Source: an uncultured candidate division Zixibacteria bacterium (GTDB taxonomy: Bacteria > Zixibacteria > MSB-5A5 > UBA10806). Taken from it: 64,000 nt of DNA. Each line of letters starts with the position of its first letter. Position 1 is the first letter of the stretch. Below the pieces are notes generated by a model. The model was given only the letters and a program-made list of their open reading frames with translations, searched no databases and was not told the DNA's origin. Both the position numbers and the translations under genes were made by a program. Below are positions 12,971 to 56,590 of this stretch, piece by piece. The DNA is taken from the NCBI GenBank assembly GCA_963817915.1, contig CAWFQL010000003.1, positions 57,414-121,413 on the forward strand. Direction: 5' to 3'.

Positions 12971-13028
12971 GCGTTGTCAAAGCATTAGGCGCCAATTCGG
13001 CGAAATCATTTCTGCCGGCTCAGTCTTT

Positions 13029-15869: not shown

Positions 15870-15924
15870 ATCATTTGGCCATGCCTCAGGATTGGAGGTT
15901 TTTTTAGACATCCTGAGGCTTTAT

Positions 15925-16400: not shown

Positions 16401-16496
16401 CTATTTTAATTGAATATCCCAAATTAATATGCTAATATTGCCGGTCTTATAGAAGGTGGTGGGAAGGGGATTAAATCTTAAAAATAGGGGCCAGGC

Positions 16497-18017: not shown

Positions 18018-18034
18018 ATTTTGATTTTGTGTGG

Positions 18035-27710: not shown

Positions 27711-28779
27711 TTGCAGGCATTTTCATCAATAAATTTGGGGGTATATTTAATGGCGAATCCGAAAAACATATCTAACCTGCTGGCGTTCAGAATGGCGTCG
27801 CATACGCTTCGCAATATGATAACCAAAAAGCCGATCTGCATAGCGTTGGAAGTAACCCACAACTGCACCGCCAACTGCCGCCATTGCGATAAGGGACCGA
27901 AAGTCGATGACCATGCGGTCGGGGCGTTAGAATATAAAAAGATTTGCGATGAGCTGTCGCCATCGATGATTCAAATCGCCGGTGGGGAGCCGTTGAAACG
28001 GGCCGAACTGCCCGAAATAGTCAGGGCATTATACAATCCCGATAAAATCCCGTTTCTGGTCGTAGTCACCAACGCGTCCTTATTGACCAAAGAAAAATAT
28101 CTCGAACTGCGCGAGGCTGGGATAAAGCAATTCTCGATCTCGCTCGATTTCCCCGATAGCCGCCACGATGATTTCCGCCGAATTCCCGGACTGTTTGACC
28201 ATTTGAATAAATTGATACCGGAATTAATCGCCATGGGCAATGGCGATGTTACAGTCAATACCTGCATCACGAGGGTTAATTATCCCTATCTCATGGATAT
28301 AATCAAGAAAGTGGCATCATGGGAGGCCAAGCTCAATTTCTCGGCCTATACCGATTTACGCACTCATGACGAGCAATACAATTTGAGGCATCCCGAAGAC
28401 ACGGTCACAATTCGACAAAATTATCGATCAGATATATTCCGATGAGACAGCGGCAAGTTGTGTGATGACATCGCAAAAGGTCATGCGTCGTTTCAATAGA
28501 TTCTATAAAGAGAAATGCTATATCCCCAATTGCCAGACCGGATACAAATTTCTGATTGTCAATCCCGATGGCACCCTGACGCCTTGCGCCATGTTCATCA
28601 AGGATCGTTATAAGAGCCAGAAGGAATTGATCGAAAAATTCGTCAAAAAGACCGATTGCGGGGGATGCTATATCTCGATCCGCGCCAATACCGAAAAATC
28701 ACTGTGGGAACTCTTAACCGATAATCTGCGTGCCTACAAACTCGGCCTGAAAAGCGCCGCGAAATATGGGACAAGGTGA
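27711..28779 (+). pseudogene. Radical SAM / SPASM-domain protein split by a frameshift into 27711-28445 and 28462-28779
   Basis: The first ORF carries the CxxxCxxC cluster (HNCTANCRHCDKG). The second ORF has a Cys-rich SPASM-like tail (CYIPNCQTGY...PCAMF...CGGCYIS). The second frame is open upstream back to ~28405 (…FDKIIDQIYSDETAASCV…), so a single +/-1 shift near 28400-28445 separates the halves. Combined length ~350 aa fits anSME/PqqE-like maturases. Confidence 0.6.
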
Positions 28780-33028: not shown

Positions 33029-33690
33029 AACGGGCAATTGCCAATTGACCACAAGGGGGACGATATGTCCCCCTTTTTTATCGCTTCAATATATAAATAA
33101 TCTAAATGCGATATGTATAGTATATGTAAGTATATGTAAACACTTTACATATTCATGTATGTGTGCCAATTACGGGAATTCATCGCTAAATCGCTCTAAT
33201 TTAATTCGATTCTCTAAAATTATTTATTAATAAAATCAATTCCTAATAGTGTGCTGTCGATAATAATAGACGGAGTAGCAATCACAGGGTGTTAAATTAA
33301 AACAATACAATTCCCATGAGTATTAATAGACTCTCCCAACCCTGTTTTTAATTCATTATCTAAATGTGGTTTATGTCCACATCAAATCTATGGCACTTTT
33401 TACTGTATGGGATGGTTTAACAGCTATGAGGTCGAATCTGGACAAAAATTGCATTTGTCCGAATCCGATTTTTCCGCTATAATCTTAATGGGACGATAAT
33501 TTTAATCCAGGGGGTATTCCTGCAGGTAAGACGTGACGCTACTGGGGCCGAGGGGAAATCAAGGTACAGATTACTTATAAGAATTGTCCATATTGTCGCA
33601 TTAATAATATTCGCGGTCTTCCTCTTCCAGGGCATTTCTTATTATCTGGCGCCGTTTTCCCAAAGGCCTCATTTAGAAGATTATAGGATT

Positions 33691-34425
33691 TTGCGACCGG
33701 CGGCGATCTATGGCCATACGTTCGGAGTCGTAGGCTCGTTCTTTATGATTTGCATGTTGTCGTATACTCTAAGGAAAAGGATCAAGCTATTCAAGAATTG
33801 GGGATCGATCGGCAAATGGCTCGACATTCATATATTTCTCGGTATCTATGGTCCATTGCTTGTGATTTTGCATTCGACCTTCAAGGTGCAGGGATTGGTT
33901 GCTGTCAGCTTCTGGTCGATGGTTGCGGTCGCGACGAGCGGAATATTCGGTCGATATCTATATCTACAGATCCCGAGGAATATCCACGGCGACGAACTCA
34001 GCGTCAAGGAGCTCGATGAAATGAGCCAGGGGTATTACGATAAATTGAAAAATGAATTTGGCTTTACCGATGAAACATTAAAGAGCCTGAAAGAGCATAG
34101 TACTTCTGGAATAGATAAGAGCGTAGGTCCGGCAATGGTACTCTGGATACTTATTAAGGACGATATAAAGCATATATTCTCGGGGCGAAAGGAACAGAGA
34201 AAATTGGCGTCGAAGCTGAATATACCGCGCGAAGCAATATCTCGATTTCTTAAATCTAACCGCCGTCAAAATCTTCTCGAGCGAAGAATAGCCCTTATGA
34301 ATGGGGTTCAGCAGATGTTTCATTACTGGCATGTAATTCATAAGCCGTTCGCGTTCGTAATGTACATAGTAATGTTAGTGCATATAGTAGTGGCAGTCTG
34401 GACAGGATACAAATGGATATTCTAA
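33691..34425 (+). CDS. Integral membrane protein with conserved His in TM helices, possibly a b-type haem-binding subunit (DUF4405-like). First gene of the cytochrome cluster.
   Basis: 244 aa starting at a TTG. The frame is open upstream to 33430 without ATG/GTG/TTG, so the start is uncertain. TM helices carry His (YGHTFGVVGSFF; LDIHIFLGIYGPLLVILHS; FHYWHVIHKPFAFVMYIVMLVHIV). Its stop overlaps the next cytochrome start (ATGGATATTCTAA). Confidence 0.4.
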   Translation: MRPAAIYGHTFGVVGSFFMICMLSYTLRKRIKLFKNWGSIGKWLDIHIFLGIYGPLLVILHSTFKVQGLVAVSFWSMVAVATSGIFGRYLYLQIPRNIHGDELSVKELDEMSQGYYDKLKNEFGFTDETLKSLKEHSTSGIDKSVGPAMVLWILIKDDIKHIFSGRKEQRKLASKLNIPREAISRFLKSNRRQNLLERRIALMNGVQQMFHYWHVIHKPFAFVMYIVMLVHIVVAVWTGYKWIF

Positions 34426-36166: not shown

Positions 36167-39100
36167 ATGAAAAAGTTTTTTGCGATAATATCTGCCATAG
36201 CTGTTGTGTTGTGCGGTGTACTTGTTTTCAGTCAGGAGCCGACAGCAAATCCGCATGGCAAATTAAAATGGGAATGCAGCGCGTGCCATAGCACCGATTC
36301 CTGGAAAATTACCAAAGCTCCAACCGGATTCAAGCATGCGGATACAGGGTTTGCCTTGCGGGGAGCGCACGATGTTACGGACTGCAGCGATTGCCACAAG
36401 GATTTGACATTTTCCCATATCGGCACGGCTTGCATAGATTGTCATACGGATATTCATCGCGGGCAATTTGGCAATTATTGCGAAAAATGCCATCTGCCCG
36501 ATAGCTGGCAAAATCGCCAGGAGCAGTTAGGCTTGCATTCATCGCGCGGATTTCCATTGATCGGTATTCATTCGATAGCTGATTGCGGCGCATGTCATGT
36601 AGGCCAGCAGCGAAATGAGTATTCCGGTACTCCGATTGAATGTATTGGCTGTCATCAGGGTAATTACGCCTCCACTACCAACCCTAATCATGTGCTTGCT
36701 AAATTCAACACGGACTGCCGCGAATGTCATAACGAATCCGCGAGTTCATGGAAAAATGCTACCTATGCGCATCCGTCGATATTCGAAATCCATGGAGCGC
36801 ATGTTGGTCTCGAATGTGTCAGATGCCATGCAGACTAGCGTTCGCGGGCACGCCAAGGGAATGTGTCGGCTGTCATTTGCCGGCTTATCAAACGGCTAAT
36901 AACCCGCCGCATGCCGTGCCGGTATTCCCGGAAGATTGCGTCATGTGTCATAACGATATTCAATGGATGGGAGCGACATTCAACCATCTTCAGGCCACAG
37001 GCTACGAATTACTCGGAGCTCATGCGACGGTGCATTGCAACGATTGCCATACCAATAATAATTATGTCAATATTCCTAACCAGTGTTTTGGGTGCCATCA
37101 GAATAATTATAATGAAGCGGCTAATCCCAATCACCAAACAAATAATTTCGATCACGATTGTACCGTCTGCCATAACTTTAATGGCTGGTCTCCTTCGACA
37201 TTCAATCATAGCGCAACCCGATTCGCTCTTACCGGAGTGCATCTAACAACACAATGCGTAGCCTGCCATACCAACGGCTACCAGAGTACTCCGATGGATT
37301 GTTACAGTTGCCATCAAAACAATTATAATTCGGCGACAAATCCCAATCATGCGACCAATAATTTCAATCACGATTGCACGCAATGCCATAATACCGCCGG
37401 ATGGTCGCCATCGACATTTAATCATAGCCAGACCAGGTTCACATTAACCGGCGCGCATTTGACTATCCAGTGTGTTGCCTGCCATGCTAATGGCTACCAG
37501 AATACACCGCTGGATTGTTATAGCTGCCACGTTAATAATTTTAACGGAGTGACTGATCCCAACCACGTGACCAATAATTTCAGCCACGATTGCACCCAAT
37601 GCCATTCTACGGTCTCATGGTCAGGCGGAACATTCAATCATAGTCAGACGCAGTTCCCGTTGACCGGCGCCCACGCTACAATACAATGTATAGCATGCCA
37701 CGCCAATGGTTACCAAAACACGCCGACGGATTGCTATAGTTGTCATTTGAACGATTTTAATGGGGCGACTAATCCCAATCATGTCACCAATAATTTCGGC
37801 CATGATTGCACCCAATGCCATTCCAATACAGCCTGGTCGCCTTCGACATTCAATCATAGCCAGACACAATTCCCACTTGACGGGCGCTCATGCGACAAGG
37901 CAGTGTATTGAATGCCATGCCAATGGCTACCAGAACACTCCATCAGACTGCTATAGCTGTCATCAAAGCAATTTTAATGGTGCGACCAATCCTAATCATG
38001 TGACCAATAATTTCAGTCATGATTGTACGCAATGTCATTCGACTTCCGTCTGGATACCATCGACTTTTGATCATAATCAAACCAGATTTCCATTAACCGG
38101 TGCCCATATATCTCGGCAATGCGTTGATTGCCATGCTAATGGTTACCAGAATACCCCATTTGATTGCTATAGCTGCCATCAAAGCAATTTTAACGGCGTT
38201 AGCGATCCTAATCACGTCACCAATAACTTCAGCCATGATTGCACGTTATGCCATTCGACTTCAGGCTGGTCACCGGCGACTTTCGACCATAACTCGACCA
38301 GATTCCCATTAACCGGACGGCACATTGGCCTAAATTGTGTTGCCTGTCATGCCAATGGTTATCAGAATACTCCATATGATTGCTATAGCTGTCACGTAAA
38401 TGATTATAATGACGTAAATGATCCGGACCATAGGGCCAATAATTACAGCCATGATTGCACGCAATGTCATAATACATCGGGATGGGGTAATGGTACATTC
38501 AATCATAATCCGACGAGATTTCCATTGACCGGGGCGCACGTGAGCCTGCCATGTATTTCATGTCATGCCAATGGTTATCAGAATACGCCTTACGATTGCT
38601 ATGGATGTCATCAGACTAATTATAATATGGTCCCGGACCCAAACCACGTGCAAAATAATTTTAATCATGACTGTACGCAATGCCATAATACTTCAGCCTG
38701 GACACCGGCATCATATGATCATAGCCAAACAAGATTCCCGTTGACCGGTGCCCATGTTGGACAGACATGTGTTGCCTGTCATGCCAATGGCTATAATAAC
38801 ACGCCATTTGACTGCTTTAGCTGCCACACAGGTAATTATAATTCGGCTACTGATCCCAACCATGTGACCAATAATTTTGACCATGACTGTACGCGATGTC
38901 ATACATACTAGGTCTGGTCGCCTTCGACATTCAGCCATGGCTCGACAAGATTCCCGTTAACCGGCGCGCATGTTCCTCTTCAATGTATTTCTTGTCACGC
39001 CAACGGATATCAGAATACACCGTTGGATTGCTACAGTTGCCATGTGGGCAATTATAATTCGGTTACCGACCCCAACCATGTGACCAATAATTTCGACCAT

Positions 39101-40670
39101 GATTGTACCCAGTGTCATACGACATCGGTCTGGAATCCATCGACATTTAATCACAGCTCGACCAGGTTCCCCTTAACTGGCGCGCACAATACGCTGCAAT
39201 GCATTTCGTGTCATGCCAACGGATACCAGAATACGCCGTTGGATTGTTACAGTTGCCATGTCGGTAATTATAATTCCGTTCCGGATCCTAATCACGTTAC
39301 CAATAATTTCAGCCATGATTGCACTCAATGCCATACAACTGCGGGCTGGACTCCGGCGAATTACAATCATAGTCAAACGAGATTTCCGTTAACTGGGGCG
39401 CATGTAAATCTTGCCTGCGTGGCCTGCCATGCCAATGGCTATCAGAATACGCCGTTCGATTGCTATAGCTGCCATCAGAATAACTACAATGGCGTCGTCG
39501 ATCCCAATCACAACACCAATAATTTCAGCCACGACTGCACAGTATGTCACACTACATCCGGATGGACACCTGTATCGTTCAATCACGGATTGACGCAATT
39601 CCCGTTAACCGGGGCGCATGTAAATCTTGCCTGTGTTGCTTGTCACGCCAATGGATACCAAAATACGCCTATGGATTGCTATAGCTGTCACCAGAGCAAT
39701 TATAATGGTGTTACGGATCCTAATCATGTCACCAATAATTTCAGCCATGACTGTACTATCTGTCATACGACCACAGCCTGGAATCCTTCGACATTCAATC
39801 ACGGGCAAACCCAATTCCCGTTAACCGGCGCGCATGTGAGTCTTGCCTGCATATCCTGTCACGCCAATGGGTACCAAAATACGCCTATGGATTGCTATAG
39901 CTGTCATCAGGGCAATTATAACGGTGTTACGGATCCTAATCATGTCACCAATAATTTCAGTCACGACTGCACCGTATGTCATACTACTTCAGCCTGGACT
40001 GCCCGCGACATTTAATCATGGCACGACCAGATTCCCGTTGACCGGTGCGCATGTAAGCCTGGCCTGTATAGCCTGCCATGCCAATGGCTATCAGAATACG
40101 CCTTTCGATTGCTATAGTTGTCATCAAAGCAATTTCAATGGTGTCGTAGATCCAAACCACGTCACCAATAATTTCAGCCATGACTGCACCGTATGTCATT
40201 CTACTTCGGCTTGGTCGCCGGCGTCATTCAACCATAATCAAACACAGTTCCCATTGACCGGAGCGCATACTACACTGCAATGTGTCGCCTGCCACGCCAA
40301 TGGATACCAAAATACCCCGACTGCTTGTGTCAGCTGCCATCAGGCCGATTATAATGGCGCCACAAATCCGAATCATACCGCTCAGGGATTTCCCACGCAA
40401 TGCCAGCAGTGTCATACAACCGCTAATTGGACGCAATTAACTTATAACCATAATACTCAATATTTCCCAATTACTACCGGAAGGCATGCTACCGTTTGGT
40501 CAACCTGTGCTACCTGCCATAATATTCCTGGAAATCTTGCGCATTTCGAATGTATCCTCTGCCATGAGCACAACCGCTCTGACACAGATTCACAGCATCA
40601 GGGTAGGTCGGGTTATCAATATCTAAGCACTGCGTGCTACGCTTGCCATCCCAGAGGCAATGCCGGTTAG
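36167..40670 (+). pseudogene. Giant multiheme cytochrome c (~1500 aa, ~60 CxxCH) made of ~16 tandem 72-aa tri-haem modules. The reading frame is interrupted at four or more positions.
   Basis: ATG at 36167 with signal peptide (MKKFFAIISAIAVVLCGVLVFS). The first ~220 aa carry 8 CxxCH. From ~36.9 kb a 216-bp module repeats: FNHSQTRFPLTGAHxxLxCxACHANGYQNTPxDCYSCHxxNYNGVTDPNHVTNNFSHDCTQCHxTxxWxPST. The track shows it as five ORFs (36116-36838, 36748-37911, 37760-38911, 39023-40015, 39843-40670). Breaks: a frame change near 36838; a +1 frame change near 37875 (ccgttgacc versus ccacttgacg); an in-frame TAG at 38909-38911 where paralogous modules have Ser/Ala; a frame change near 39995 (actccggcgaca versus actgcccgcgaca). 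The C-terminal tail is shared with the next gene (…CHxHxxxxTDSxHQ…YxxxxxACYxCH). Confidence 0.7.
36990..40420 (+). repeat. Coding tandem repeat: ~16 copies of a 216-bp unit (three haem sites per unit)
   Basis: Adjacent units are nearly identical at DNA level (e.g. 39400-39615 versus 39616-39831). The period is defined by recurrence of DCYSCH, HDCTQCH and ACHANGYQNTP codons. Confidence 0.8.
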
Positions 40671-40679: not shown

Positions 40680-41483
40680 ATGTCTGGCATGCGTATAATA
40701 CTCATTATGGCAATTAGCCTTGCCACGGGAGTTCCCTGCTATTCACAGGAGAATCCTCATCGAGACTCCAAGCTCGATTGCCAGGAATGTCATACCGCTT
40801 CAAGTTGGACCGATATCAAGTTTGATCATCAGAAGACCGGTTTTGTGCTCGATGGAAATCATTTGGAGGTTCCCTGCGTCTCATGTCATTCATTGGTTGA
40901 TTTCAATATAGTTTCAAAGGAGTGTGTTTTTTGTCATGTTGATATTCATCAGGGGAAATTGGCCCGTACTTGCGAACAGTGCCATTCGACAAGGGGATGG
41001 AATATTTTCAATACAACAAGAGCGCATGCGAATACGACATTCCCTCTGATTGGCGCGCACGCAAAGCTCGATTGCCGTTCCTGCCATCTAAGCGAAATTG
41101 AAGGAGAGTATTCATTGCTTAAATCGGAATGTATATCTTGCCACGAGGCCGACTTTAATAATGCCCAAAATCCGTCCCATTCGGCATTGGGATTCGGGAC
41201 TCGCTGCAATGATTGCCATACGCTTTTATCCTGGCGCCCCGCCGATTTTTCACAGCATAATTCGTATTTTCCTATATATAGCGGGGCACATGCCGGAAAA
41301 TGGCGGAGTTGTTATGATTGTCATCCGACTCCGGGTGATTACGGAATCAGTACCATGACCTGTTTTTCCTGCCATGTTCATGACCAAGGGTCGACAGATT
41401 CTCGGCACCAAGAGGTCGCAGGATACGTTTATCAAAGCAGCGCCTGCTATAATTGTCATTCAAGCGGAAGCGCTGGAGGCTGA
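40680..41483 (+). CDS. Multiheme c-type cytochrome, 10 CxxCH
   Basis: 267 aa with signal peptide. CQECH, CVSCH, CVFCH, CEQCH, CRSCH, CISCH, CNDCH, CYDCH, CFSCH, CYNCH. Its C-terminal tail is homologous to the tail of the giant cytochrome. Confidence 0.85.
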   Translation: MSGMRIILIMAISLATGVPCYSQENPHRDSKLDCQECHTASSWTDIKFDHQKTGFVLDGNHLEVPCVSCHSLVDFNIVSKECVFCHVDIHQGKLARTCEQCHSTRGWNIFNTTRAHANTTFPLIGAHAKLDCRSCHLSEIEGEYSLLKSECISCHEADFNNAQNPSHSALGFGTRCNDCHTLLSWRPADFSQHNSYFPIYSGAHAGKWRSCYDCHPTPGDYGISTMTCFSCHVHDQGSTDSRHQEVAGYVYQSSACYNCHSSGSAGG

Positions 41484-41493
41484 GAGGTCTAAT

Positions 41494-43104
41494 ATGAAGG
41501 GATTATTAGTCAAAATCCTTGCAACGATAATATTCGCGCTTATTTTCCGGGTTGGAGCGTCGGCCGCTATCCATGTCCAATATCTTTCCCAGGAAGCGGT
41601 CTATATCGATGCCGGAATCGAAGACAGCCTTTCAATCGGCGATCAACTCGAGATCAGAAAAGGCGACAGCCTTATTGCTCAATTAGAAATTATCTTCGCG
41701 TCCGAGCATTCGGCTTCCTGCAAGATACTTAATTCGACAGGTACAATCGAAATCGGGGCTACCGTAAATATCACTTCAAGGGCGATCGTGGCCAAGCCGG
41801 CCCCGGCAGATTCTGTTGCGGATACGACTGCGAAAAAACTTGAGCCTGCGCCAATTGCAGTTGCGCCAAAGCCTAAGAAAAATTCTACCCATTTCAGCGG
41901 GACTATTGCCTTGCAGACTTATAATTGGAACGATATCACTTCATCGAATCTTGATTTCTCCCAGCCGTCGGCGAGAATAAATATTACCGCCCTGAAACTC
42001 TGGGGCACCGAGCTTTCATTTACGCTAAGATCGACCATCCGCAATGAACGAAGGACCCGCAGCTATAGCAGCTCTGTTCCCAAAAGCGAATGGCGCAATA
42101 GGGTATACCAACTTTCAATAGGGTATTCGGATGACAACGGGCCATTCGGGTTTGAATTCGGCAGAATAATCTCGAATAAAATCAGCGGTATCGGATATAT
42201 AGATGGAATCCTTGTCCATCGCAGGGTGAGCAAATTGGTCAATATGGGAGTATTTGTAGGGACTCAACCCCAATGGCAATATTCCGATTTTCAAACTTCG
42301 ATCCAGAAATACGGATTTTATACTAATTACGCGCGAGGCGAATATGCCAAATCTCGTTATGAAGTGACCCTGGCGGCCGCGGGCGAATATCATAGCAATA
42401 TCGTCAGCCGTGAATTCATTTATCTTCAGAATAATCTCATTATTAAGGGCGATTGGAATATTTTTCAGAGCGCGGAATTGGATCTTAATCGCGGATGGCG
42501 TAAAGAAAAATCGAAAATAGGCACATCTCTAACTAACTTCTACCTTTCCACCAGGAAACGAGTTACTGGCTGGCTTTCGGCGAGCCTGAGCTTTGATTCC
42601 CGTAAAAACTATTGGACCTATGAAATTCGTTCGATGGCCGAGCAGCTTTTCGATAGCAATGTCCGGCGCGGAGGCAGAGCGGATATTTCGCTGAGACTGC
42701 CTGGCAATTTCCAGCTTCTCGCGGGATTTGGCTTGCGGAAACGGGCCACGGAATCGGGCTCTACCTATTCTTATTCTGGGGCATTGAATAAATCCAATAT
42801 CCTCAATTCAAAGCTGGACATAAATATTCAGATGTCGGGATTTACCAACCCGCTTACAAACGGGTATAATGTATCCACGACTCTCGGTCGCTATTTCGGC
42901 AGGGGGAACTACCTGAGTATTGGATACAGCGGATACGTATATTCGATCCAAAATGGCGGTCCAACCCGCAGTAATACCGCATATCAGCTAAGCTCAATGA
43001 TAAGCATTATCAGATCCGTATATTTTTCCGGTCAATATGAATACGACACTGGGGATGATACCAAAGGCCATCGAATAGTAGCGGAACTCGGTTATCGTTT
43101 CTAA
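41494..43104 (+). CDS. Outer-membrane beta-barrel protein, candidate porin partner of the cytochromes (Pcc/MtrB-like role)
   Basis: ATG at 41494 preceded by ggaggctgagaggtc. The listed ORF starts earlier but overlaps the previous gene. Signal peptide MKGLLVKILATIIFALIFRVGASAA. ~510-aa mature, beta-rich, alternating-hydrophobic sequence ending in the OMP signature ...AELGYRF with a terminal Phe. The barrel assignment rests on composition and terminus only. Confidence 0.5.
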   Translation: MKGLLVKILATIIFALIFRVGASAAIHVQYLSQEAVYIDAGIEDSLSIGDQLEIRKGDSLIAQLEIIFASEHSASCKILNSTGTIEIGATVNITSRAIVAKPAPADSVADTTAKKLEPAPIAVAPKPKKNSTHFSGTIALQTYNWNDITSSNLDFSQPSARINITALKLWGTELSFTLRSTIRNERRTRSYSSSVPKSEWRNRVYQLSIGYSDDNGPFGFEFGRIISNKISGIGYIDGILVHRRVSKLVNMGVFVGTQPQWQYSDFQTSIQKYGFYTNYARGEYAKSRYEVTLAAAGEYHSNIVSREFIYLQNNLIIKGDWNIFQSAELDLNRGWRKEKSKIGTSLTNFYLSTRKRVTGWLSASLSFDSRKNYWTYEIRSMAEQLFDSNVRRGGRADISLRLPGNFQLLAGFGLRKRATESGSTYSYSGALNKSNILNSKLDINIQMSGFTNPLTNGYNVSTTLGRYFGRGNYLSIGYSGYVYSIQNGGPTRSNTAYQLSSMISIIRSVYFSGQYEYDTGDDTKGHRIVAELGYRF

Positions 43105-43152
43105 AGTTGATATTCATAGAGATGTTTAGAATTCAGGATTTTGTGAGGTAAT

Positions 43153-44487
43153 ATGGAATCAGACGCAATCTGGATATTCACGGTAATACTCATAGTAAGT
43201 ATTTCCGCCCCATATTTTATAAAATTTCGCAAACGCCAGAAAATGGATATCGAACGGCGGAAAGAGGCGGAAATCTTGGGCATCAGCAAGCCTTCCAGCC
43301 AATATCCGATGATCGACTCCACTCTCTGTATTGGCTGCCGCACCTGTGTCGATGCTTGTCCCGAGCATGATGTGCTCGGTATCGTATTCGGCAAGGCAAT
43401 GGTTATAAACGGCCAGCGTTGTGTTGGACATGGCTACTGCGAACTCGTGTGTCCTGTTGGAGCATTGAAAGTGGGACTCGGCGATATCAAAACTCGTCCC
43501 GATATTCCAGTCGTAGATGACAATAACCAATCCAATATTCCGGGCCTTTTTATCGCCGGTGAATTGGCCGGTCTTTCGTTGATCAGAAATGCTATAGATC
43601 AGGGAAGACGGGTTATAGAAAAAATAGCCGAAAATAATAATCGCTCAGCCAATGAAAATATTTACGATGTCATAATAATTGGAGCTGGTCCGGCGGGGCT
43701 TACTGCCTCACTTAATGCGATCAAAAACAAACTTTCTTACCTTCTAATCGACCAGCAGGCTCCGGGTGGTACGATTCTTCAATATCCCCGACATAAATTG
43801 GTAATGACCCAGCCTGTGGAAATTCCCCTTTATGGCTGGCTCAAGAAAGAAGAGTATGCCAAGGAAGACCTGCTGGATATATGGAATAAAATATTGAATG
43901 ACTTCAAGATCAATGTTCGAGTGGGTGAGAAGATCGAATCTGTCAGAAAAGAAGCGGAAGTATTCAAGGTTAAATCGCTTGCGGCCGAGTATTCCGCAAA
44001 TCATGTGGTGTTATCGATGGGTCGCCGGGGCACTCCCCGAAAACTTGGCGTAACCGGTGAAGATCTTCCCAAGACTCTCTATCAGCTGCTCGACGCGCAA
44101 TCGTATAATAACAATCATATTCTTGTTGTGGGCGGCGGCGATAGCGCTATCGAAGCGGCAGTTGGTCTTGCGCATCAGACCGGAAATAAAATCACGATTT
44201 CTTATAGAAAAAGCACATTTGCCCGTGTTAAGAAGAAAAATGAAGATCTTGTCAAAAAAGCTATCGCTGAAAAGAAAGTCAGAGCTATTTTCAATTCGGA
44301 AGTTCTCGAAATCAGAGATAAGAATGTCAAACTAAAAGTAGGAGAAGACATAGTCGAAATACTCAACGATTTTGTCTTCGTGTTTATCGGCGGCGAGCCT
44401 CCTATCAAAATGCTTAAGGAGATGGGCATATTATTCGGCGGCGAAGCGCCGGTTATCGAAGTTCCGCCTGTCCCGGCAATGTCTTAA
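43153..44487 (+). CDS. Membrane-anchored fusion of a 2x[4Fe-4S] ferredoxin and an FAD/NAD(P)-dependent oxidoreductase (thioredoxin-reductase-like)
   Basis: 444 aa. N-terminal TM helix. CIGCRTCVDACP and CVGHGYCELVCP ferredoxin motifs. Dinucleotide-binding motifs DVIIIGAGPAGL and ILVVGGGDSAIEAA. Confidence 0.7.
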   Translation: MESDAIWIFTVILIVSISAPYFIKFRKRQKMDIERRKEAEILGISKPSSQYPMIDSTLCIGCRTCVDACPEHDVLGIVFGKAMVINGQRCVGHGYCELVCPVGALKVGLGDIKTRPDIPVVDDNNQSNIPGLFIAGELAGLSLIRNAIDQGRRVIEKIAENNNRSANENIYDVIIIGAGPAGLTASLNAIKNKLSYLLIDQQAPGGTILQYPRHKLVMTQPVEIPLYGWLKKEEYAKEDLLDIWNKILNDFKINVRVGEKIESVRKEAEVFKVKSLAAEYSANHVVLSMGRRGTPRKLGVTGEDLPKTLYQLLDAQSYNNNHILVVGGGDSAIEAAVGLAHQTGNKITISYRKSTFARVKKKNEDLVKKAIAEKKVRAIFNSEVLEIRDKNVKLKVGEDIVEILNDFVFVFIGGEPPIKMLKEMGILFGGEAPVIEVPPVPAMS

Positions 44488-44555
44488 GACAATCCTCAAT
44501 TTTGCATATAAAAAAGGCGGCACTCAGGCCGCCTTTGAAAAAAATCTGTCTTCAT

Positions 44556-47500
44556 TTACTTCAACAATAACATCTTGTTGGTTTTGGTGAAATTAGCGGT
44601 TTCGATTTTGTAGAAATAAAGCCCGGTCGCGACTTTTCGGCCCGATTCATCCTTGCCATCCCAAACAACCTGCTTATAGCCGGCAGCCTGTCTTTGATCC
44701 ACAAGGTTTTTCACCTTCTGACCCATAATATTGAATACTACAATTCTCACTTCGGAATCGACCGCGAGCCCATAAGAAATCGTGGTTGAAGGATTGAATG
44801 GGTTCGGATAGTTTTGCGATAGGAAGAACTTCTTCGGAGCGGTGATATCATCGTTCAACCCTGTGATTGTCAGCGCCTTTCCAGAGCCGGCGGTTGATCC
44901 GAATGATTCGGCGGTTAGATTTCCTTCGGAGAATAGAGCGCTAACGTAATACCAATAAAGATTAGTATCGGCAAGATCAATATCCGAATAGCTCGTTGCC
45001 TGAATCGGAGAATCGTTCAGCTTCGAAAAATCACCATTGGGCCAACGGCTTCTGTAAATATTAAATCCGGCGAGATTAGGATTCGTTAATGTATCCCAGC
45101 GAACCTCGATTAAATTAGAAATATTGTTCGATGCTGAAAGACTGGATGGTATCGGGCATCGAGTGAGATGTAATGTCTCCGTCTCGATAAGCTGGTTGGC
45201 TACCACCTGGATACTTTCCTGATAGGCAGGGTAATATCCAAGGGCTTCGGCGGTGAGGCTTATTGTTCCGGGCGGTACTTCTTTAATAAAGAACCTGCCA
45301 TCGCTGGCTGAAATTCTCCTTTGACCTGTGCTCGCATGAATTTGAGCGTCGCCATTCTGGCCGCTTCCATCAAGATCGACACTTCCCCTTACTGAGCCGC
45401 GTCCGGTACTGGTGGTAATCAGCGTGACTGCGCCGTCAATCAAGGTCGCTCCTCCCGGAGCGTAATAATTGTCGTGCGTAAATTCCAGCCCGCGTTGTTC
45501 ATCGTAGCTCTCGAATCCTACGGACGCGTAACCCTCTCCAGAGTCGGTGTTATTAACATCTCTGTAAATAAAAAGGATATCGGAATCGCCTGTAAGGCTC
45601 GGATAATAGGCTGGATCCATAATAACCATCTGGAATGTTTCGTACTGGAAGGTATTCGTATTGGTTAATTTCAACCACTCTATATAAAATTTATGGTTCA
45701 CCGAATCATACCATTTGTAAACACCTAAGTGCGTTCCGTCAATTCTGAGATCATCCCAGAACGGCGAAATCTGTCCGCGCGCGTTACCCGGGTCAGGAAT
45801 TGGCCAATTGAAGAAGTTGGCCCAGTAATTTCCCTGCATATCCATTGGAGTAGTATCCAACGCTGCGAAACCATTGATACAAACTATCATCGCCCCGTAA
45901 TCTTGGCCATAATACTTCATGTTGAATGGCAATGTCACGAGAACCGATTTGTCATCCAACTCGGATCCATAATTCAAACGAGTACCCTGCCCGCCGCTAT
46001 CCGGGCTGATTTCAACCCATTGATAAGTCGGCATCATTGCGTATGCGCTGTCCATACGATCATACATGTAATAGCCATAGGAATCCGGCCCAACCGGGTC
46101 CCTTGACGAAATTCGTCCAACTGTTAGTGTAAATGGAATCGATGACTTTGAACCCGAAAGGGTTGATATATGAAGAGTCAGATTTAATTTTTTGCCCTTA
46201 AAGGCAGTCGAATCGCATGTGATACTGACGAGAGAACTGGAATTGTCGCCGGAGCCGCCGATTGAAATATCACCGAAATTGGCAATTGATCCAACGGCAT
46301 TCGCATAATCATCATCGGTTGTCACAATACCGGTAACACCCTGGGCATTAAGCGATCCGCTATTGGATAAAAATATCTTGAGATTGGCTGTTTGACCCGG
46401 ACCGATAAGGCTGTCACCCTCGGGGATTATAGCTCTGGTGACTGCGAATTTTGGAGCCTTTACCGGGAATTCGATCATAGTTTGCCAGCTGTCATTATTT
46501 TGGTCTCTGATTGTCAATTTCTGCCTGACAGTTTGACCATCGGAAGCGGCGGGATTTACATATACCACAAATGGCGCTTCTGATGCTCTCGATTCGCCCG
46601 GCGCCAGATTGCCGTAATTGCGAATACCGTCATAGACAACAGAATTCCCATCGGTTGATTCCAACTGCGCGGATACATTCGTAGCTGAAATATCCGTACC
46701 GAAATTCTTGATTGAGACATTTAATTCGATTGTCTCGCCAGGCGCGGCTAAATGATCGCCGTCTCCGTGAGAAAAGCCGTCGGTATCATCATCGATATAA
46801 ATGGAGTCCAATCCTACTGCCAGATCGGATGTCGCTATTTCCACATTGGTTTGGTAAGGAATAAGATTTTGTCCGGAAACGGTAAGCTTCATTGAGCCGG
46901 GAGTATTGGCGTCAAATATTAGCGTGACATTTCCCGATTCATCGGTTTTATCGACACTGAATACTTCTTCGGTTGTCCCAATAGTTTTGATCAATGTCAC
47001 ATATGCGCCTGAAATCGCGTTGCCCGCTGAATCTATCACTGAAGCATTAAAGCTGTTTGTTCCCAGTGCCACAGTATCGAGATGTGTAACGTTTATGCTT
47101 ATTGGAATTTTAGTGCGTAATTCAAGTTCAGGATCGCCCAGCATATTATATGTATTGAAATATTGTTGTATCATTCCTCCCGGGGCGGTCTGTCTTGGGA
47201 ATGTCCAGTAATCCTGAAGCTTTCCTCTCACTGCCGCGGCGGCAAAATGATAGACATTCTCTTCAAATATCCCGAAGAAATAGCCGACCATAATGGGGTT
47301 ATTCCATCTGGTATGGGTGTCGTGATCGGAAACCCCATAAAACGCCGGTCCGCCTTTCAAGCTATCAGGACTACGTCCCATTCTAATCCAGGTCTCGCCA
47401 AAACATTCACCGCCGAAATCACCGGTGCCGCAAGTCAATGGAGACAGAACGCCAAGTTTTTGATTGTCCTGTAAATTGAGCAAATCGTAACTCGTCATCG

Positions 47501-48872
47501 ATGGGCCGGCCCAGCCGTCAGTTCCTCCAGCCCCGCGATATTGAATAAAACCGATTCCAGCGTTGAAAAGAGAAGGCAGCCTCCAGCCGGAATCGAATAC
47601 GGTGTCAACTCGGACAAAACCATGCCTGAGCTGAAGCTGACGGACCCAGAGAGTAGTCAATCTTGACGATTCATAATACACATAAGCCACCGAGAGCCCT
47701 CTGATCCAATGCTCCGGATCGCGCATGAGCGGATACTTTTCATACTTGAGAATCTTTGAAAGTGCCACTCTGGCCTGGGACATAGAGTCTACCGACATGC
47801 GAGCGATAAAGATATCCGGGATATAATCCGAACCATCTACGCACGCGTATTTATTATCGGACGCGTAAATGTTGCTTCCGACAATATAGGGATAATCCGG
47901 CACGACAAACATATGATCGCGATCACCGACTATCATAACATACTCCGGAGGAATCTCCCAGGAAGCGTAAGCTGTGTCAAGAAAGGCCTTTATCTGTTCC
48001 TTACTTGGAGACCCGGTTGGTCTAATTTCGGTTGTAGGAACAATTCTGACCGGATACCCCTTTTGATGCTTCCATTGAGCCACTGCTTTTACAGTATCAA
48101 CCAGTGTCGGTCTGCATATTATAACGTATCCCCCGCGCTTAACTTCAACATTATCCATTGCCTGGTCGAAATTGGCGAACATAGCCTTATAAATTGGATA
48201 AAATCCCTCGGATAGATATCTATGATGGACTGTCTTGGGATTGATTACTTCGCCATCATAGCTGATATCAACAGAAATGTCCCGGTATACGCGCAATACC
48301 TTTTGAACAGGATTATACTGCGCCGGATAGAGTGCAATCCGCACAAAACGAACATCGCGCATAATCTGCGGATCGGAAGCCTCCGCAAGATTGCCGGGAT
48401 AAAACGCATCTCTTGCGTAAGTCTGCAGGTCAATTGTGAATGGTACGGCTGACGCACCGGGAGTTTCCGAAGGGGATGGCTGAACCGGGGCAAGTTCGAT
48501 ATTCGGCAAATCATCATAACCGGAATATGTGACTGTCAATCTTACTCCTGCCTGGTCGGGGATGATTATGTTGGCTGTCAACGCTGGAAGATCGGGCTTA
48601 CCATCTTCAGCCAATTCGCTTGGCGTAATAAATTCGCCAACCGGCAGGTCAAGTTTCTTATAATTGCTGCCGCCAAGAGAAATATCGTTTAGTGCCACAG
48701 CCGGCAAATTCAAATTCAACGAGGTTTTGGAACCCAAGTTCCTCACCTCTAATTTCGACGATTCCGCCGAAATATCTGATAGAACGCGGATGTTTTGAGA
48801 GGATAATGACTGCGAAATCATTAAAAACAGCAGAAACACAGTCAAGATGCACGCTTTAGCCTTGATACTCAT
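44556..48872 (-). CDS. Gingipain-like cysteine peptidase (peptidase C25) with multiple beta-sandwich domains and a T9SS C-terminal sorting domain
   Basis: ORF extends to 48998. The probable start is ATG at 48872 (ggaggtcaaATG), giving signal peptide MSIKAKACILTVFLLFLMISQSL. C25 catalytic-domain blocks: YVMIVGDRDHMFVVPDY, YASDNKYACVDGSDYIPDIFIARMSVDS, GAGGTDGWAGPSM, LSPLTCGTGDFGGECFGETWIRMG. The C-terminus NYPNPFNPSTTISYGL...GLYFYKIETANFTKTNKMLLLK is a Por C-terminal domain. Confidence 0.75.
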   Translation of the reverse strand: MSIKAKACILTVFLLFLMISQSLSSQNIRVLSDISAESSKLEVRNLGSKTSLNLNLPAVALNDISLGGSNYKKLDLPVGEFITPSELAEDGKPDLPALTANIIIPDQAGVRLTVTYSGYDDLPNIELAPVQPSPSETPGASAVPFTIDLQTYARDAFYPGNLAEASDPQIMRDVRFVRIALYPAQYNPVQKVLRVYRDISVDISYDGEVINPKTVHHRYLSEGFYPIYKAMFANFDQAMDNVEVKRGGYVIICRPTLVDTVKAVAQWKHQKGYPVRIVPTTEIRPTGSPSKEQIKAFLDTAYASWEIPPEYVMIVGDRDHMFVVPDYPYIVGSNIYASDNKYACVDGSDYIPDIFIARMSVDSMSQARVALSKILKYEKYPLMRDPEHWIRGLSVAYVYYESSRLTTLWVRQLQLRHGFVRVDTVFDSGWRLPSLFNAGIGFIQYRGAGGTDGWAGPSMTSYDLLNLQDNQKLGVLSPLTCGTGDFGGECFGETWIRMGRSPDSLKGGPAFYGVSDHDTHTRWNNPIMVGYFFGIFEENVYHFAAAAVRGKLQDYWTFPRQTAPGGMIQQYFNTYNMLGDPELELRTKIPISINVTHLDTVALGTNSFNASVIDSAGNAISGAYVTLIKTIGTTEEVFSVDKTDESGNVTLIFDANTPGSMKLTVSGQNLIPYQTNVEIATSDLAVGLDSIYIDDDTDGFSHGDGDHLAAPGETIELNVSIKNFGTDISATNVSAQLESTDGNSVVYDGIRNYGNLAPGESRASEAPFVVYVNPAASDGQTVRQKLTIRDQNNDSWQTMIEFPVKAPKFAVTRAIIPEGDSLIGPGQTANLKIFLSNSGSLNAQGVTGIVTTDDDYANAVGSIANFGDISIGGSGDNSSSLVSITCDSTAFKGKKLNLTLHISTLSGSKSSIPFTLTVGRISSRDPVGPDSYGYYMYDRMDSAYAMMPTYQWVEISPDSGGQGTRLNYGSELDDKSVLVTLPFNMKYYGQDYGAMIVCINGFAALDTTPMDMQGNYWANFFNWPIPDPGNARGQISPFWDDLRIDGTHLGVYKWYDSVNHKFYIEWLKLTNTNTFQYETFQMVIMDPAYYPSLTGDSDILFIYRDVNNTDSGEGYASVGFESYDEQRGLEFTHDNYYAPGGATLIDGAVTLITTSTGRGSVRGSVDLDGSGQNGDAQIHASTGQRRISASDGRFFIKEVPPGTISLTAEALGYYPAYQESIQVVANQLIETETLHLTRCPIPSSLSASNNISNLIEVRWDTLTNPNLAGFNIYRSRWPNGDFSKLNDSPIQATSYSDIDLADTNLYWYYVSALFSEGNLTAESFGSTAGSGKALTITGLNDDITAPKKFFLSQNYPNPFNPSTTISYGLAVDSEVRIVVFNIMGQKVKNLVDQRQAAGYKQVVWDGKDESGRKVATGLYFYKIETANFTKTNKMLLLK

Positions 48873-49245
48873 TTGACCTCCACTAAGCCTTAAAAAAATA
48901 AACATAAACATATCCCATAATTTTAGGCGAGAATATCCCCCCAGCGATTTCTCGTTTACCAATGGATTAAACAACTTAATCCGCTTGGCTCGTTCCACTA
49001 ATATAATCGATAATTTTTTACTTAGTAAATTATGTCATTGAAATTTTGATTTAAATTGGGAAATTCTCAAAATTTGCAACCCCATTTTTGAGACTATTAT
49101 TGAGTGGGCCGCCCACGTTAACCTGATGAATATTTTGCGGTTATGGAAATTATTGGCGGTTCATTTAATGCGGTGATAATTATACGAAATAGAAATGGGG
49201 CGAATAATGTTCGCCCCGAATTACTCCGACTATTGAAAAATCAGA

Positions 49246-50490
49246 CTATCTTATATATCGAAATATCGCGACTTCGCTTGTGGCTGCCACAAATAAATAT
49301 GGCCAATGAGATCGCACATCTCTGACATTTGTGCCAACAGTCTGAGTTTGAATTAATCTCAGGCTATCCGGCAAAGTGTAGACAAATGAGTAAATTTTTC
49401 CCGATTCCGAGCCGGCAAACAATGTCGAATCGCCAACATCAACAGTGTTGAATATTTCTCCGTTTACGAAGCGATCCAGAAAACGAGGTGTTGTTGGATG
49501 CGATATAGAAAGTGCCAATACCCCCCCGGTGCCGTCCGCGATAAACGCGAAACTATCGACCACGGCAACGCCCTTCGCGAGACTCAATCCGGAATAAGTG
49601 CATAGTATCTGGGCTGATGTAGGGCTGGTACAATCGACAATATAAAAATTGCTGTTACCCACAATAAATGCCGTATCGTGGCGGGCGACGACTTTATTCA
49701 GGAGATCTGACGTGAATGCAAGATAGGCAATTGATCTCAAAGTATCGGGATCGCTTCTATTTACTATCGAAAAACCATCGTTTTCCGCTATGAATAAATA
49801 ATGGCCGGATACGGCAACATCGTTGGCGAATGTCTGAGTGACATATCGCCCTTTACTTATCAGCGTATCGCCATTGCTCGCATCAAGTCTTAATACTCCC
49901 TGACCCTTATCCGCGATAAACAATTCGAATCCATTTACATCCGCTCTCAGAGCGCTGCCCGGCGTATCGTAACGGCCCAAAAATGACGGCGAACCAAGAT
50001 AGCGTATATCATAGGTCATGACCCCGGCATCACCATCAGTCAAAAACAGAAGTCCTCCATATTCGGCCACGCCGCGCGCGTCCGCGGGACTAATAGTCAC
50101 AGAGGAAAGCTTGGTGAATAAATGTGAGTATGATAGACTGACATTGATTATCTGTGAATTATAAGTCGAATCAGCCGTATGACCGACAGCCAAAAGAATA
50201 TGATTCGTACCAGATGAATGTTGATAGATATTCCAGAAATAATAGTATGGGGCAATTGAATCGCTCGCGACAGAATCGCCGTCGATAAAGAAATCGACTC
50301 GTCTCATCGTATAGCCCGAACCCACCGCGGCAGTTATATACACGGGGTCCGCTAAAACAGAATTATTCGCCGGCGAAGTTATCGAAATTGCCAATTGTTC
50401 TCCCGGGGCAGTTGTCTTGTTCTTGCAGGAGAGCAAAATCGGGATAACGGCCAAGGATAATATGGAAATTATGAGAATGTTCTTTTTCAT
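49246..50490 (-). CDS. Lipoprotein with an N-terminal Ig-like region and LVIVD-type beta-propeller repeats
   Basis: 414 aa. Lipobox ILLSC. Repeated YLFIAENDGFSIVNRSDP, LLFLTDGDAGVMTYDI and ELFIADKGQGVLRLD-type blocks resembling LVIVD repeats. AT-rich. Confidence 0.4.
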   Translation of the reverse strand: MKKNILIISILSLAVIPILLSCKNKTTAPGEQLAISITSPANNSVLADPVYITAAVGSGYTMRRVDFFIDGDSVASDSIAPYYYFWNIYQHSSGTNHILLAVGHTADSTYNSQIINVSLSYSHLFTKLSSVTISPADARGVAEYGGLLFLTDGDAGVMTYDIRYLGSPSFLGRYDTPGSALRADVNGFELFIADKGQGVLRLDASNGDTLISKGRYVTQTFANDVAVSGHYLFIAENDGFSIVNRSDPDTLRSIAYLAFTSDLLNKVVARHDTAFIVGNSNFYIVDCTSPTSAQILCTYSGLSLAKGVAVVDSFAFIADGTGGVLALSISHPTTPRFLDRFVNGEIFNTVDVGDSTLFAGSESGKIYSFVYTLPDSLRLIQTQTVGTNVRDVRSHWPYLFVAATSEVAIFRYIR

Positions 50491-50529
50491 CTATCTACCC
50501 CTATTATTATCGGAATAATTTTATGATAT

Positions 50530-51960
50530 TCAATCTCTCTTTTTGCCGTTATCAGCGAAAACCACTGCGTTTTCAGGGGCAGATTCTCTTGCCCTATGAT
50601 AAACAATGGCCAGGAATATTATAGGTACCAGCTCACCATCTATAACGCCATCCATTATTATGGTTCCAACTTCAAAGATTGATCTAAATATTAGCGCTAT
50701 CAAGGTGGCCGCGATTCCCAAAATTACCAAATCTCGTGGATTCCTTTTAAGCAATGGGGACAATTTTAGAGATCTTCGTCCGAATGCCAGCAAGAATCCG
50801 AGGGCGCAGGCGGCTGCGATGAAGCCCTTTTCGGCAAAATTGGTAAGTATATAATTATGAGCGCCCCCTCCGCCAATTTGCAATGAGACTCCCCGGGCAA
50901 ACGAGGGAGGGATGAAATAAAATGTTAAATCGTTGAATCGCCTTGCCCCCACGCCAAAAATCGGAGCCTCCTTTATCATTTCTATAGCTGCAACCCATAG
51001 GGAGGTCCGATTGGAAGTACCTTGTTGAATCCGGAATAGCCACTGAAACGTCGGTACGGTCATAATTATTATTGCAAATATCATTATAATGGCCATTAGC
51101 AGGAAAATCATTTTTTTTCTCGCTGGATGAAACCACAATACAACGGCGAGACCTACAGCAAGTCCGATTATACTGGAGCGGGATAATGATGAGAAAAAAG
51201 CGGGCAATAAAACAATTAATATTATTCCGGAAAGAGTTTTAATCCATTTTTCCCGAGACAAAAATATAAAAGCAAAATAGATTGGAAGCGACAACAAAAT
51301 ATTATAGCCAACACTATTGGCATTTCCGAATATTGTATAAACTCTATTCGTAAAAACAGTGCCGCTCGAAACATATTTGCCAAATCCATACCTTAAGAGA
51401 AAATCATATGCTGAAATTGCATTGGCCAATGAAAATAAGGACAATATTATTATAAAAGGCCAAAACATTTTCTTATTGCCGAATTGGTCAAAAACAATAA
51501 TTGAAACTGCGAACAGGAATAAATATCGCACAAATTGCTTTAATGCCGCTGAACTTGGCCCCACGTACGCAATTGATAAAAACGACCAAATTATAAAGAC
51601 GACAAATAGCACTAATATTTCTTTAGGGTAAGATATCTTATATAAATCCTTATTTAGCCAGCCGAAGAACCAGATGATAATAACAATGGAGGAAAGTCCG
51701 TAAATAATAAATGAAGACAATGGAGCCCTGACGACAAAACTCGTAATAGCAACTAAAATATAAGCCTGAAAACCGAAAGTGAAATTCCATAATAGACAGA
51801 AAATAACAATTGATCCCAGCAAACCTGCAAAAGCATAAATCGGATTTGAAATGGCAAAAATTGCAGCTAAAGCGTTTATTATGAAAAATGTGGCAAAGAG
51901 CTGATTTTTCCTCTCCTGAAATACTTCCGGGAATATTGTTTGCCTTAGATCAATATTCAT
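50530..51960 (-). CDS. O-antigen ligase / Wzy-like polytopic membrane protein
   Basis: 476 aa with ~11 TM helices. Central periplasmic loop RSSIIGLAVGLAVVLWF..., typical of the O-antigen ligase (Wzy_C) family. AT-rich, which is typical of surface-polysaccharide loci. Confidence 0.45.
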   Translation of the reverse strand: MNIDLRQTIFPEVFQERKNQLFATFFIINALAAIFAISNPIYAFAGLLGSIVIFCLLWNFTFGFQAYILVAITSFVVRAPLSSFIIYGLSSIVIIIWFFGWLNKDLYKISYPKEILVLFVVFIIWSFLSIAYVGPSSAALKQFVRYLFLFAVSIIVFDQFGNKKMFWPFIIILSLFSLANAISAYDFLLRYGFGKYVSSGTVFTNRVYTIFGNANSVGYNILLSLPIYFAFIFLSREKWIKTLSGIILIVLLPAFFSSLSRSSIIGLAVGLAVVLWFHPARKKMIFLLMAIIMIFAIIIMTVPTFQWLFRIQQGTSNRTSLWVAAIEMIKEAPIFGVGARRFNDLTFYFIPPSFARGVSLQIGGGGAHNYILTNFAEKGFIAAACALGFLLAFGRRSLKLSPLLKRNPRDLVILGIAATLIALIFRSIFEVGTIIMDGVIDGELVPIIFLAIVYHRARESAPENAVVFADNGKKRD

Positions 51961-56219: not shown

Positions 56220-56581
56220 CTAATTAACAGACAGGCATTTGAAAACCTGTTCGCTGGTGCCATCCTCAAATGATATTTTCCCTTCCATAATCGTCTTGAT
56301 GCTATCCACCGAAATCATTTCAGGGTTGTAGCTAAAGATGGCCTTATGCTCAGTCGCGAAAGTCTCAATACCATAAATACCCGGAATGCTATCGTATAAT
56401 GATGAAAAGAAGGTTGCTGTGCCTTTGCATTTGAGCCCTTCAACCACAAATATGGTTTTGGCCCCGGCCTTCGCGTCAAATGTCTTATTAGTTGTAGGCT
56501 GAACAAATGCGGTTTGAGATGATACCCGCCGACTAAAGCGGAAATTACGAAAATCGGTATTATTATTTTTGGAATTTCCAT
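56220..56581 (-). CDS. Small protein downstream of the NapH-like gene. A signal-anchor N-terminus in one frame and a ferredoxin-fold (HMA-like) domain in an adjacent frame suggest a frameshifted small secreted protein.
   Basis: ATG at 56581 preceded by taaggag gives MEIPKIIIPIFVISALVGGYH..., then low-quality sequence. The -1/+1 frame, which is the tail of track ORF 56220-57125, reads ...TIFVVEGLKCKGTATFFSSLYDSIPGIYGIETFATEHKAIFSYNPEMISVDSIKTIMEG..., resembling the beta-alpha-beta-beta-alpha-beta HMA fold. The frame switch would lie near gtcggcggg (~56525). Confidence 0.3.
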
Positions 56582-56590
56582 ATCTACTCC

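Follow-up and report, generated by a model that had tools for sequence, protein, structure and literature searches.

Can a reading frame that is broken four times in the deposited sequence of a bacterium be whole in the bacterium itself? The question is raised by a giant multihaem cytochrome c gene in the 64,000 nucleotides (nt) analysed here and called the window throughout (an uncultured candidate division Zixibacteria bacterium, assembly GCA_963817915.1, contig CAWFQL010000003.1, positions 57,414 to 121,413 of the forward strand). In the printed sequence the gene is interrupted at exactly four sites, and we consider these breaks to be probably errors of consensus or polishing and not features of the organism's DNA, a reading to which we give a probability of roughly 0.7 and whose support is indirect rather than a proof. 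As reconstructed, the gene is the following.

36167-40670, plus strand: giant multihaem cytochrome c gene, about 1500 codons with 61 CxxCH motifs, lying in five pieces in the window

It begins with an ATG at 36167, where the open reading frame (ORF) opens MKKFFAIISAIAVVLCGVLVFSQE (MKKFF...) and encodes a hydrophobic N-terminus that, judged from the sequence directly, resembles a signal peptide, and it ends with a stop codon at 40668-40670. When the pieces are read in their correct frames, 61 CxxCH haem motifs are counted, with a start-to-start spacing of 96/45/75 nt across the array that makes up most of the gene. The closest orthologue, P0001 (63% identity), is encoded by a single open frame of 1423 amino acids on a 1.9-Mb contig, in an operon whose gene order matches that of the window. 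A global alignment shows the two genes to be colinear from signal peptide to C-terminus, P0001 being one module shorter, and at all four positions where the window gene is broken P0001 has sense codons in one frame.

The four lesions are listed below, with frames given as position mod 3.

36836-36838, plus strand: lesion 1, frame 2 to 1, net +2 nt or -1 nt
37870-37880, plus strand: lesion 2, frame 1 to 2, net +1 nt in CCACTTGACGGGCGCT
38903-38911, plus strand: lesion 3, an in-frame TAG at 38909-38911 in ACA TAC TAG GTC (containing ACTAG), module length unchanged
39996-40001, plus strand: lesion 4, frame 2 to 0, net +1 nt in TGGACTGCCCGCG

The sequence-only reading that first drew attention to the gene had placed frame changes near 36838, 37875 and 39995 and an in-frame TAG at 38909-38911. 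ORF frames and CxxCH spacing bear out the three frame changes and narrow them to 36836-36837, 37870-37880 and 39996-40001, and the TAG is equally present, in the context CHTY*VW. That reading had spoken of four or more breaks; we find four and no more, since the haem-motif spacing deviates at the three frameshifts only, to which the TAG is added. Each lesion amounts to a net change of 1-2 nt or to a local substitution or scramble. At lesion 1, a TAG at 36836-38 (context GAC TAG CGT, within ACTAG) closes the first piece, and the distance between neighbouring CxxCH motifs is 47 nt against 45 nt in P0001 and in all modules; taking away 2 nt yields CH-ADSFAGTPRE-C or CH-ADAFAGTPRE-C, to be compared with ASSYAGTPPE in P0017. 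The spacing at lesions 2 and 4 is in each case 97 nt instead of 96, and by the module alignment one base less restores FPL(T/D)GAH at lesion 2, while removal of a G restores the consensus W-T-P-A-T-F-N-H at lesion 4.

Lesion 3 had been regarded as a substitution to a stop codon, unlike an indel error, at a position said to be occupied by Ser or Ala in all sister modules. The position proved to be more variable than this: the 15 sister motifs carry Ser eight times, Ala three times, Thr twice and Val and Asn once each. The CxxCH spacing across the TAG is the normal 96 nt, and the Tyr just before it is rare, only 6 of 2052 family motifs having it there. A pair of changes 7 nt apart, one base gained and one lost, converts ACT ACT AGY GTC, which encodes the canonical TTSV and is present in the next module after the lesion, into ACA TAC TAG GTC. 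The argument from a substitution is thereby weakened, as one inserted and one lost base can explain the rare Tyr together with the TAG, and the apparent substitution may be a pair of indel errors.

Most of the gene consists of tandem modules, each of which encodes three haem motifs.

37093-40319, plus strand: 216-nt tandem array of 72-codon, three-haem modules, 14.9 copies with 73% matches by Tandem Repeats Finder (TRF)

The array had been described as near-identical, which is not what we observe: beside the TRF value of 73%, pairwise identity among modules ranges from 54 to 76% (median 69%), and the longest exact repeat inside the array is 38 nt, with just three pairs reaching 31 nt. Nor do all breaks fall inside it, as had been stated; lesions 2 to 4 do, while lesion 1 (36836) precedes it by about 250 nt, in an N-terminal part without repeats. 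As the modules are this diverged (~69% identity), neither repeat collapse nor ambiguous placement of accurate reads is to be expected. Collapse or a mis-join between modules was considered as a cause of the breaks and rejected, exact sharing being limited to 38 nt and an in-register mis-join being one that would preserve the frame.

The immediate context of the two lesion TAGs sets them apart from the rest of the DNA. CTAG is the most avoided tetranucleotide of the genome (20 observed, against 246 expected from a zero-order model and 70 from a Markov model; observed/expected in the window 0.08 and 0.28, respectively), and only 3.9% of TAGs are preceded by C. Both lesion TAGs stand in ACTAG, so that the CTAGs at 36835 and 38908 account for 2 of the 20 sites. 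Taking into consideration this avoidance and the shared ACTAG, the lesions look unlike sequence shaped by this genome. Several lesions also adjoin GGWCT or GACT, two lie in ACTAG, and a methylation or error motif could be involved; we offer this as a lead only, for it was noticed after the fact, on eight sites, and the 18 other CTAG sites have no lesion. Elsewhere in the window, five CTAG sites lie in a GmrSD/Schlafen-like gene of possibly foreign origin (19382-21637), and four in 123-nt intergenic repeats.

Apart from the lesions, the gene is in good order. All 61 of its 61 haem motifs are retained, and their spacing is regular outside the lesion sites. To quantify conservation we used 19 module columns, those in which five homologues show conservation of at least 90%: the giant gene deviates in 5 of 285 cells, and the five intact homologues in 0-8 of 152-285 cells each, that is 0-2.8%. 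A neutral history long enough to yield three indels outside homopolymers should have damaged several haem motifs, although the power of this comparison is modest (P ~0.1 or somewhat lower by our own estimate). No larger deletion was found in the giant gene. Thus, as is expected of a pseudogene, its frame is broken where that of the orthologue P0001, a single 1423-residue ORF in the same operon, is intact, and the decay that usually accompanies such disruption was not seen in it, with low power to detect decay in a very young pseudogene. Maturation of c-type cytochromes requires export by the Sec pathway. Pieces 2-5 have no signal peptide, so that real breaks would leave only residues 1-223, with eight haem motifs, exportable and able to receive haem.

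The cytochrome gene is not alone in being broken. Three further genes of the window, single-copy, free of repeats and intact in other respects, carry a frameshift, one of them classed as probable.

59364-59379, minus strand: frameshift in preA (gene 58959-60186), net +1
61236-61257, minus strand: frameshift in a preT/GltD-like gene (60183-61512), net +1
28389-28445, plus strand: probable frameshift in a radical-SAM/SPASM gene (27711-28779), net +1

In preA, the DHO_dh profile is split over two overlapping ORFs (profile positions 2-248 and 248-291). With one base removed, the gene encodes 408 amino acids that match, without interruption, the PreA equivalog NF006183 (546 bits) and are colinear with 408-residue homologues at 73-77% identity, the junction reading GIGGIETW against GIGGIENW. 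The preT-like gene has its Fer4_20 and Pyr_redox_2 domains in overlapping ORFs of different frames, and the repaired protein matches TIGR01316 as a single stretch over residues 13-428. Similarly, the radical-SAM/SPASM gene shows Radical_SAM and a weak SPASM match in overlapping ORFs of different frames; once repaired, it gives unbroken stretches over the junction on several radical-SAM/SPASM models. Including the giant cytochrome, 4 of the ~55 genes in the window are broken, and the remaining ~50 look whole by ORF tiling and Pfam coverage. All six frameshifts are net insertions of 1-2 nt, five of them net +1 and the one at lesion 1 being +2 or possibly -1. As preA, the preT-like gene and the radical-SAM gene are unrelated to the cytochrome, the lesions are not specific to it. 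The preA and preT-like genes (58959-61512, minus strand) belong to a pyrimidine-degradation cluster that is intact in other respects and also encodes a dihydropyrimidinase-like amidohydrolase, a class-III aminotransferase and a CN-hydrolase.

Comparison with orthologues had been proposed as a check. P0001 is one open frame, and the three orthologous loci that we fetched, which belong to a single ENA analysis series and have contig names in the style of Flye, all show 1-nt breaks in this operon, in differing genes. In L001 (ERZ25039554 contig_21850), the upstream cytochrome is split into 162 and 412 amino acids by one extra base in CTTGGGACTC, at 8765. In L004 (ERZ25039502 contig_308328), an extra G in CCGAA[G]CCAC splits the giant gene into 1260 and 249 amino acids, and the barrel gene of the same operon is split into 360 and 159; the two breaks are at 7751 and ~9800. 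L003 (ERZ25039480 contig_21258) shows about ten frame changes within 2.6 kb of the giant gene (9600-12250), where the motif spacings are 76, 175, 74, 98, 149, 76, 97, 98 and 98 nt against a regular 99/48/75, with very few motifs lost. The lesions of L001 and L004 are net insertions like those of the window, and those of L003 are of both signs. Independent decay of different operon genes in four lineages, with the haem motifs preserved, would be much less plausible than a common technical cause, and among the indirect arguments we regard this one as the strongest.

Independent copies of the region are few. A Logan contig of 9.9 kb from run ERR12037368 has gene lengths and spacing identical to window positions 41238-51174, which indicates that an organism with this sequence exists, in a part where no lesion is called; this contig, the only independent one found, begins at 41238, just downstream of the giant gene. 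Exact-product look-ups with the 267-, 583- and 684-residue neighbours, the first fragment and two distant genes returned no independent assembly of 36-41 kb. In homologue searches, the N-terminal fragment found only the source's own 223-residue fragment as an identical match (100%), and the repaired PreA only the source's own 304-residue fragment (100%), with no intact identical copy in either case. All window proteins are singletons at 90% identity, and a literature search on the run and analysis accessions found nothing.

Long-read-only metagenome assemblies are known to retain residual indel errors, by which genes appear truncated or split in IDEEL-type tests. The window lesions share with such errors that isolated frame changes of 1-2 nt fall in otherwise intact, conserved genes, that several unrelated genes of one contig are affected and that sibling assemblies show a like pattern. 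Under the reading that we prefer, an error-prone and probably long-read metagenome consensus would have acquired one or two extra bases at three sites of the giant gene and a small local scramble that produced the TAG, and accurate reads would not support the extra bases. The window contig was probably built by the same long-read pipeline as the siblings; this is suggested by its relatives, by the sources (NCBI and ENA, a 168-kb contig) and by the fact that the contig spans a 123-nt repeat with 99% identical copies. Directly visible in the sequences are lesions of 1-2 nt, the integrity of the rest of the gene and like lesions in unrelated genes of the contig and in the siblings, and it is the one-base frameshifts in unrelated single-copy genes of the window, together with the like lesions in the sibling operons, that lead us to favour error. 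An assembly or polishing error had already been suggested from the sequence alone, on the grounds of the repeat array; the suggestion holds up and its reason does not, as the modules are only ~69% identical and the support comes from the other genes and the siblings.

Several observations weigh against this reading. In the cytochrome 4 lesions fall within 4.5 kb, compared with 3 confirmed ones in the other ~59 kb, a density higher by a factor of about ten, and at a uniform rate our own Poisson arithmetic gives 0.49 expected where 4 are seen (P ~0.002). With modules diverged to ~69% identity, repeat ambiguity offers no easy explanation of such a local hot spot. None of the lesions lies in a long homopolymer, and many coding runs of 7-8 nt are in frame, so that the lesions, concentrated moreover in one gene, are unlike classical nanopore errors. 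Their clustering in this gene, and in the adjacent preT/preA, resembles what real pseudogenes show, and multihaem cytochromes are reported to evolve and to be lost quickly (PMC12977616).

The same facts can be read as those of a genuine, recently inactivated pseudogene, the preT/preA genes of pyrimidine degradation and the radical-SAM gene having been lost separately while small lesions accumulated. We consider this unlikely, if still a reading to be taken seriously: the lesions are grouped, four hitting the cytochrome and two hitting neighbours that serve a single pathway, some 50 kb of coding sequence besides is unbroken, homopolymers are avoided, repeat-driven misassembly is not expected at ~69% module identity, and cytochrome repertoires turn over fast (PMC12977616). 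Like ordinary bacterial pseudogenes, the gene carries several lesions and lacks the open frame that its intact orthologue shows; unlike them, it shows no loss of conserved residues and no deletions, only insertions of 1-2 nt. What speaks against inactivation is this absence of any other decay, all 61 motifs and their spacing being kept without excess change in conserved columns (a test of low power, P ~0.1) and no larger deletion being present, as well as a broken fraction of 4 in ~55 genes, several times the usual pseudogene load, and sibling assemblies that are likewise broken in other operon genes, including about ten times in 2.6 kb. Mira, Ochman and Moran reportedly found in 2001 that natural bacterial indels are biased toward deletion, and the six window frameshifts, all net insertions, run counter to that bias. 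As an argument for artefact, insertion bias was nevertheless set aside as weak, because L003 has lesions of both signs. It is also conceivable, and in our judgement rather doubtful, that the lesions are real because giant-cytochrome arrays of this lineage are natural hot spots for small insertions and have repeatedly been switched off or lost in relatives; if true, this would explain the breaks of this operon in the window, L001, L003 and L004, with the preT/preA operon decaying in parallel.

Two further explanations fare worse. A consensus that interleaves alleles or module numbers of co-existing intact strains would be an artefact too, of biological cause. Under it, the cytochrome gene would be expected to suffer most, the lesions being enriched in a fast-evolving array by the Poisson estimate; the 9-nt scramble around the TAG resembles a local misalignment, and module number does vary among orthologues (one fewer in P0001, and family members of 928-2610 amino acids). 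However, no second allele appears in any collection, the window proteins being singletons at 90% identity, and the lesions of preA, preT and the radical-SAM gene would be left unexplained, which makes a strain mixture very improbable. Least credible of all, to the point that we give it hardly any weight, is that the breaks serve expression, either by programmed recoding (frameshifting or read-through of the TAG) or by the phase variation, slipped-strand or recombinational, that the sequence-only reading had held plausible. All that points this way is that several breaks occur together in a gene that is repetitive and surface-related. A search up to 40 nt from each lesion reveals no homopolymer of at least 5, no simple sequence repeat, no slippery X XXY YYZ heptamer and no Shine-Dalgarno-like element, and thus neither a repeat tract for slippage nor a slippery site or stimulator for recoding. 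Flanking inverted repeats are at chance level (17-19 nt, 79-94% complementarity), and the cytochrome operon contains no recombinase gene. Recombinational switching by whole modules would keep the frame, as 216 = 72 x 3, and the lesions are of 1-2 nt; phase variation therefore finds no support. As for recoding, the shifts run in different directions, and P0001 is single-frame with sense codons at the four sites. TAG is an ordinary stop here, terminating 16 of the 55 long ORFs of the window, among them the giant gene and the gene just upstream of it; where lesion 3 has its TAG, sister modules and orthologues encode Ser, Ala or Thr, and no tRNA gene was found in the window.

If the breaks are errors of the consensus, what is the gene behind them? 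Searched against Pfam, the repaired N-terminal 642 amino acids match Cytochrome_C7 at 91.9 bits (cut-off 24.8), Cytochrom_c3_2 at 49.5, MtrC/MtrF II-IV at 48.9 and Cytochrom_CIII at 44.7, all above the cut-off. By its motifs, its family models and its export-like signal, the predicted protein is a multihaem cytochrome c of the c7/c3 type. A database search with a threshold of E <= 1e-10 returned 1863 homologues, including many single ORFs of 1400-2600 amino acids, in a family that spans 928-2610; those with a named source come from Ignavibacteria, Calditrichaeota, Zixibacteria, Bacteroidota and Saprospirales. A scan of one genome per species, in a collection that includes neither the source genome nor close relatives, returned only a hit of 27% identity, and no solved structure was detectable by sequence at E <= 0.01. 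In Geobacter, polymers of c7-type domains are known with 12 haems (GSU1996) and 27 haems (GSU2210). The giant gene resembles them in its tandem three-haem modules, some 70 residues long, and in its match to Pfam Cytochrome_C7, and it differs in having about 20 modules, compared with 4-9, and in the lack of a structure detectable at the threshold just given. Repaired, it would encode a normal and functional-looking multihaem cytochrome c of about 20 three-haem modules and 61 haems.

Its neighbours on the plus strand are the following.

33430-34425, plus strand: first operon gene, a membrane protein with weak cytochrome b-like similarity, orthologue of a 306-residue gene in L001
34413-36164, plus strand: upstream multihaem cytochrome, 583 amino acids, 20 CxxCH motifs, intact in the window
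40680-41483, plus strand: downstream multihaem cytochrome, 267 amino acids, 10 CxxCH motifs
41380-43104, plus strand: putative outer-membrane beta-barrel (porin) partner, 574 amino acids, ending ...ELGYRF
43153-44487, plus strand: ferredoxin-domain / flavin adenine dinucleotide (FAD)-dependent pyridine nucleotide-disulphide oxidoreductase, last conserved gene of the cluster

The putative barrel protein has no Pfam match; its orthologues hold the same position in L001 and L004. By resemblance, this architecture suggests a porin-cytochrome conduit for extracellular electron transfer. Large multihaem cytochromes with 24-49 haem motifs have been described beside porin-like genes in Ignavibacteria, Burkholderiales and others (PMC7399161), and the window cluster shares with those the dense CxxCH motifs, the smaller multihaem neighbours, the putative barrel and a motif number that varies between relatives. 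It differs from them in that the 61 motifs of the giant gene exceed the numbers given there and in the barrel without a Pfam match. The first gene of the operon shows an oddity of its own: conservation with L001 starts at 33583, and the stretch from the upstream stop (33430) to 33691 offers neither ATG nor GTG nor TTG. An ATG that is out of frame stands 5 nt past a TATAAT box (~33476-33488). The lack of a start could reflect a further 1-nt lesion or a non-canonical start.

Other parts of the window deserve mention. On the minus strand at 56220-56620, downstream of a polyferredoxin-like gene (56591-57367), a small ORF has a hydrophobic N-terminus, while another frame holds a 96-residue domain of alpha/beta appearance (AKTIFVVEGLKCKG...); an overlapping open frame of 328 codons near 56.2-56.6 kb is unusual at 47% G+C, and a small gene may be split here by another frameshift. 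Two candidate breaks were rejected. An in-frame stop that would join 9412-10290 and 6811-9372 was discounted as the downstream gene has its own signal peptide, and an apparent MprF-like split at 3672-6436 has its domain order reversed and is better taken as two genes. Upstream of the large gene 6811-9372, which has an SdrD_B / CarboxypepD_reg C-terminus, five consecutive paralogous small DUF4402 genes occupy 10327-13565 (minus strand). An intergenic tandem repeat at 15887-16417 consists of four 123-nt units, each with the palindrome GGTCGGGTCGCCTGACCCGACC, and copies two apart are 99% identical. Hairpins resembling repetitive extragenic palindromic (REP) elements, GGCGGAAC...GTTCCGCC, GTCCGAACC...GGTTCGGAC and GGTCGGGTC...GACCCGACC, recur in sets at 18029-18253 and 18961-19354, flanking a small gene (18262-18885). 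Finally, at 68-912, an IS200-like Y1 transposase (68-511) is directly followed by an ORF of 124 codons with nothing but a type IX secretion C-terminal sorting domain, perhaps what is left of a gene that the insertion disrupted.

The locus carries a warning about quality, in that this contig and related public assemblies alike show their largest cytochrome genes as series of fragments; for giant cytochromes, such fragmentation would be systematic in assemblies of this type. Automatic annotation will miss or undercount proteins of at least 60 haems and may label them pseudogenes. Were the breaks real, they would mean the ongoing loss of a conduit for extracellular electron transfer. Taking them as errors of the consensus, as we do, the underlying gene would be an unremarkable, though very large, representative of a type of cytochrome cluster that is already known.

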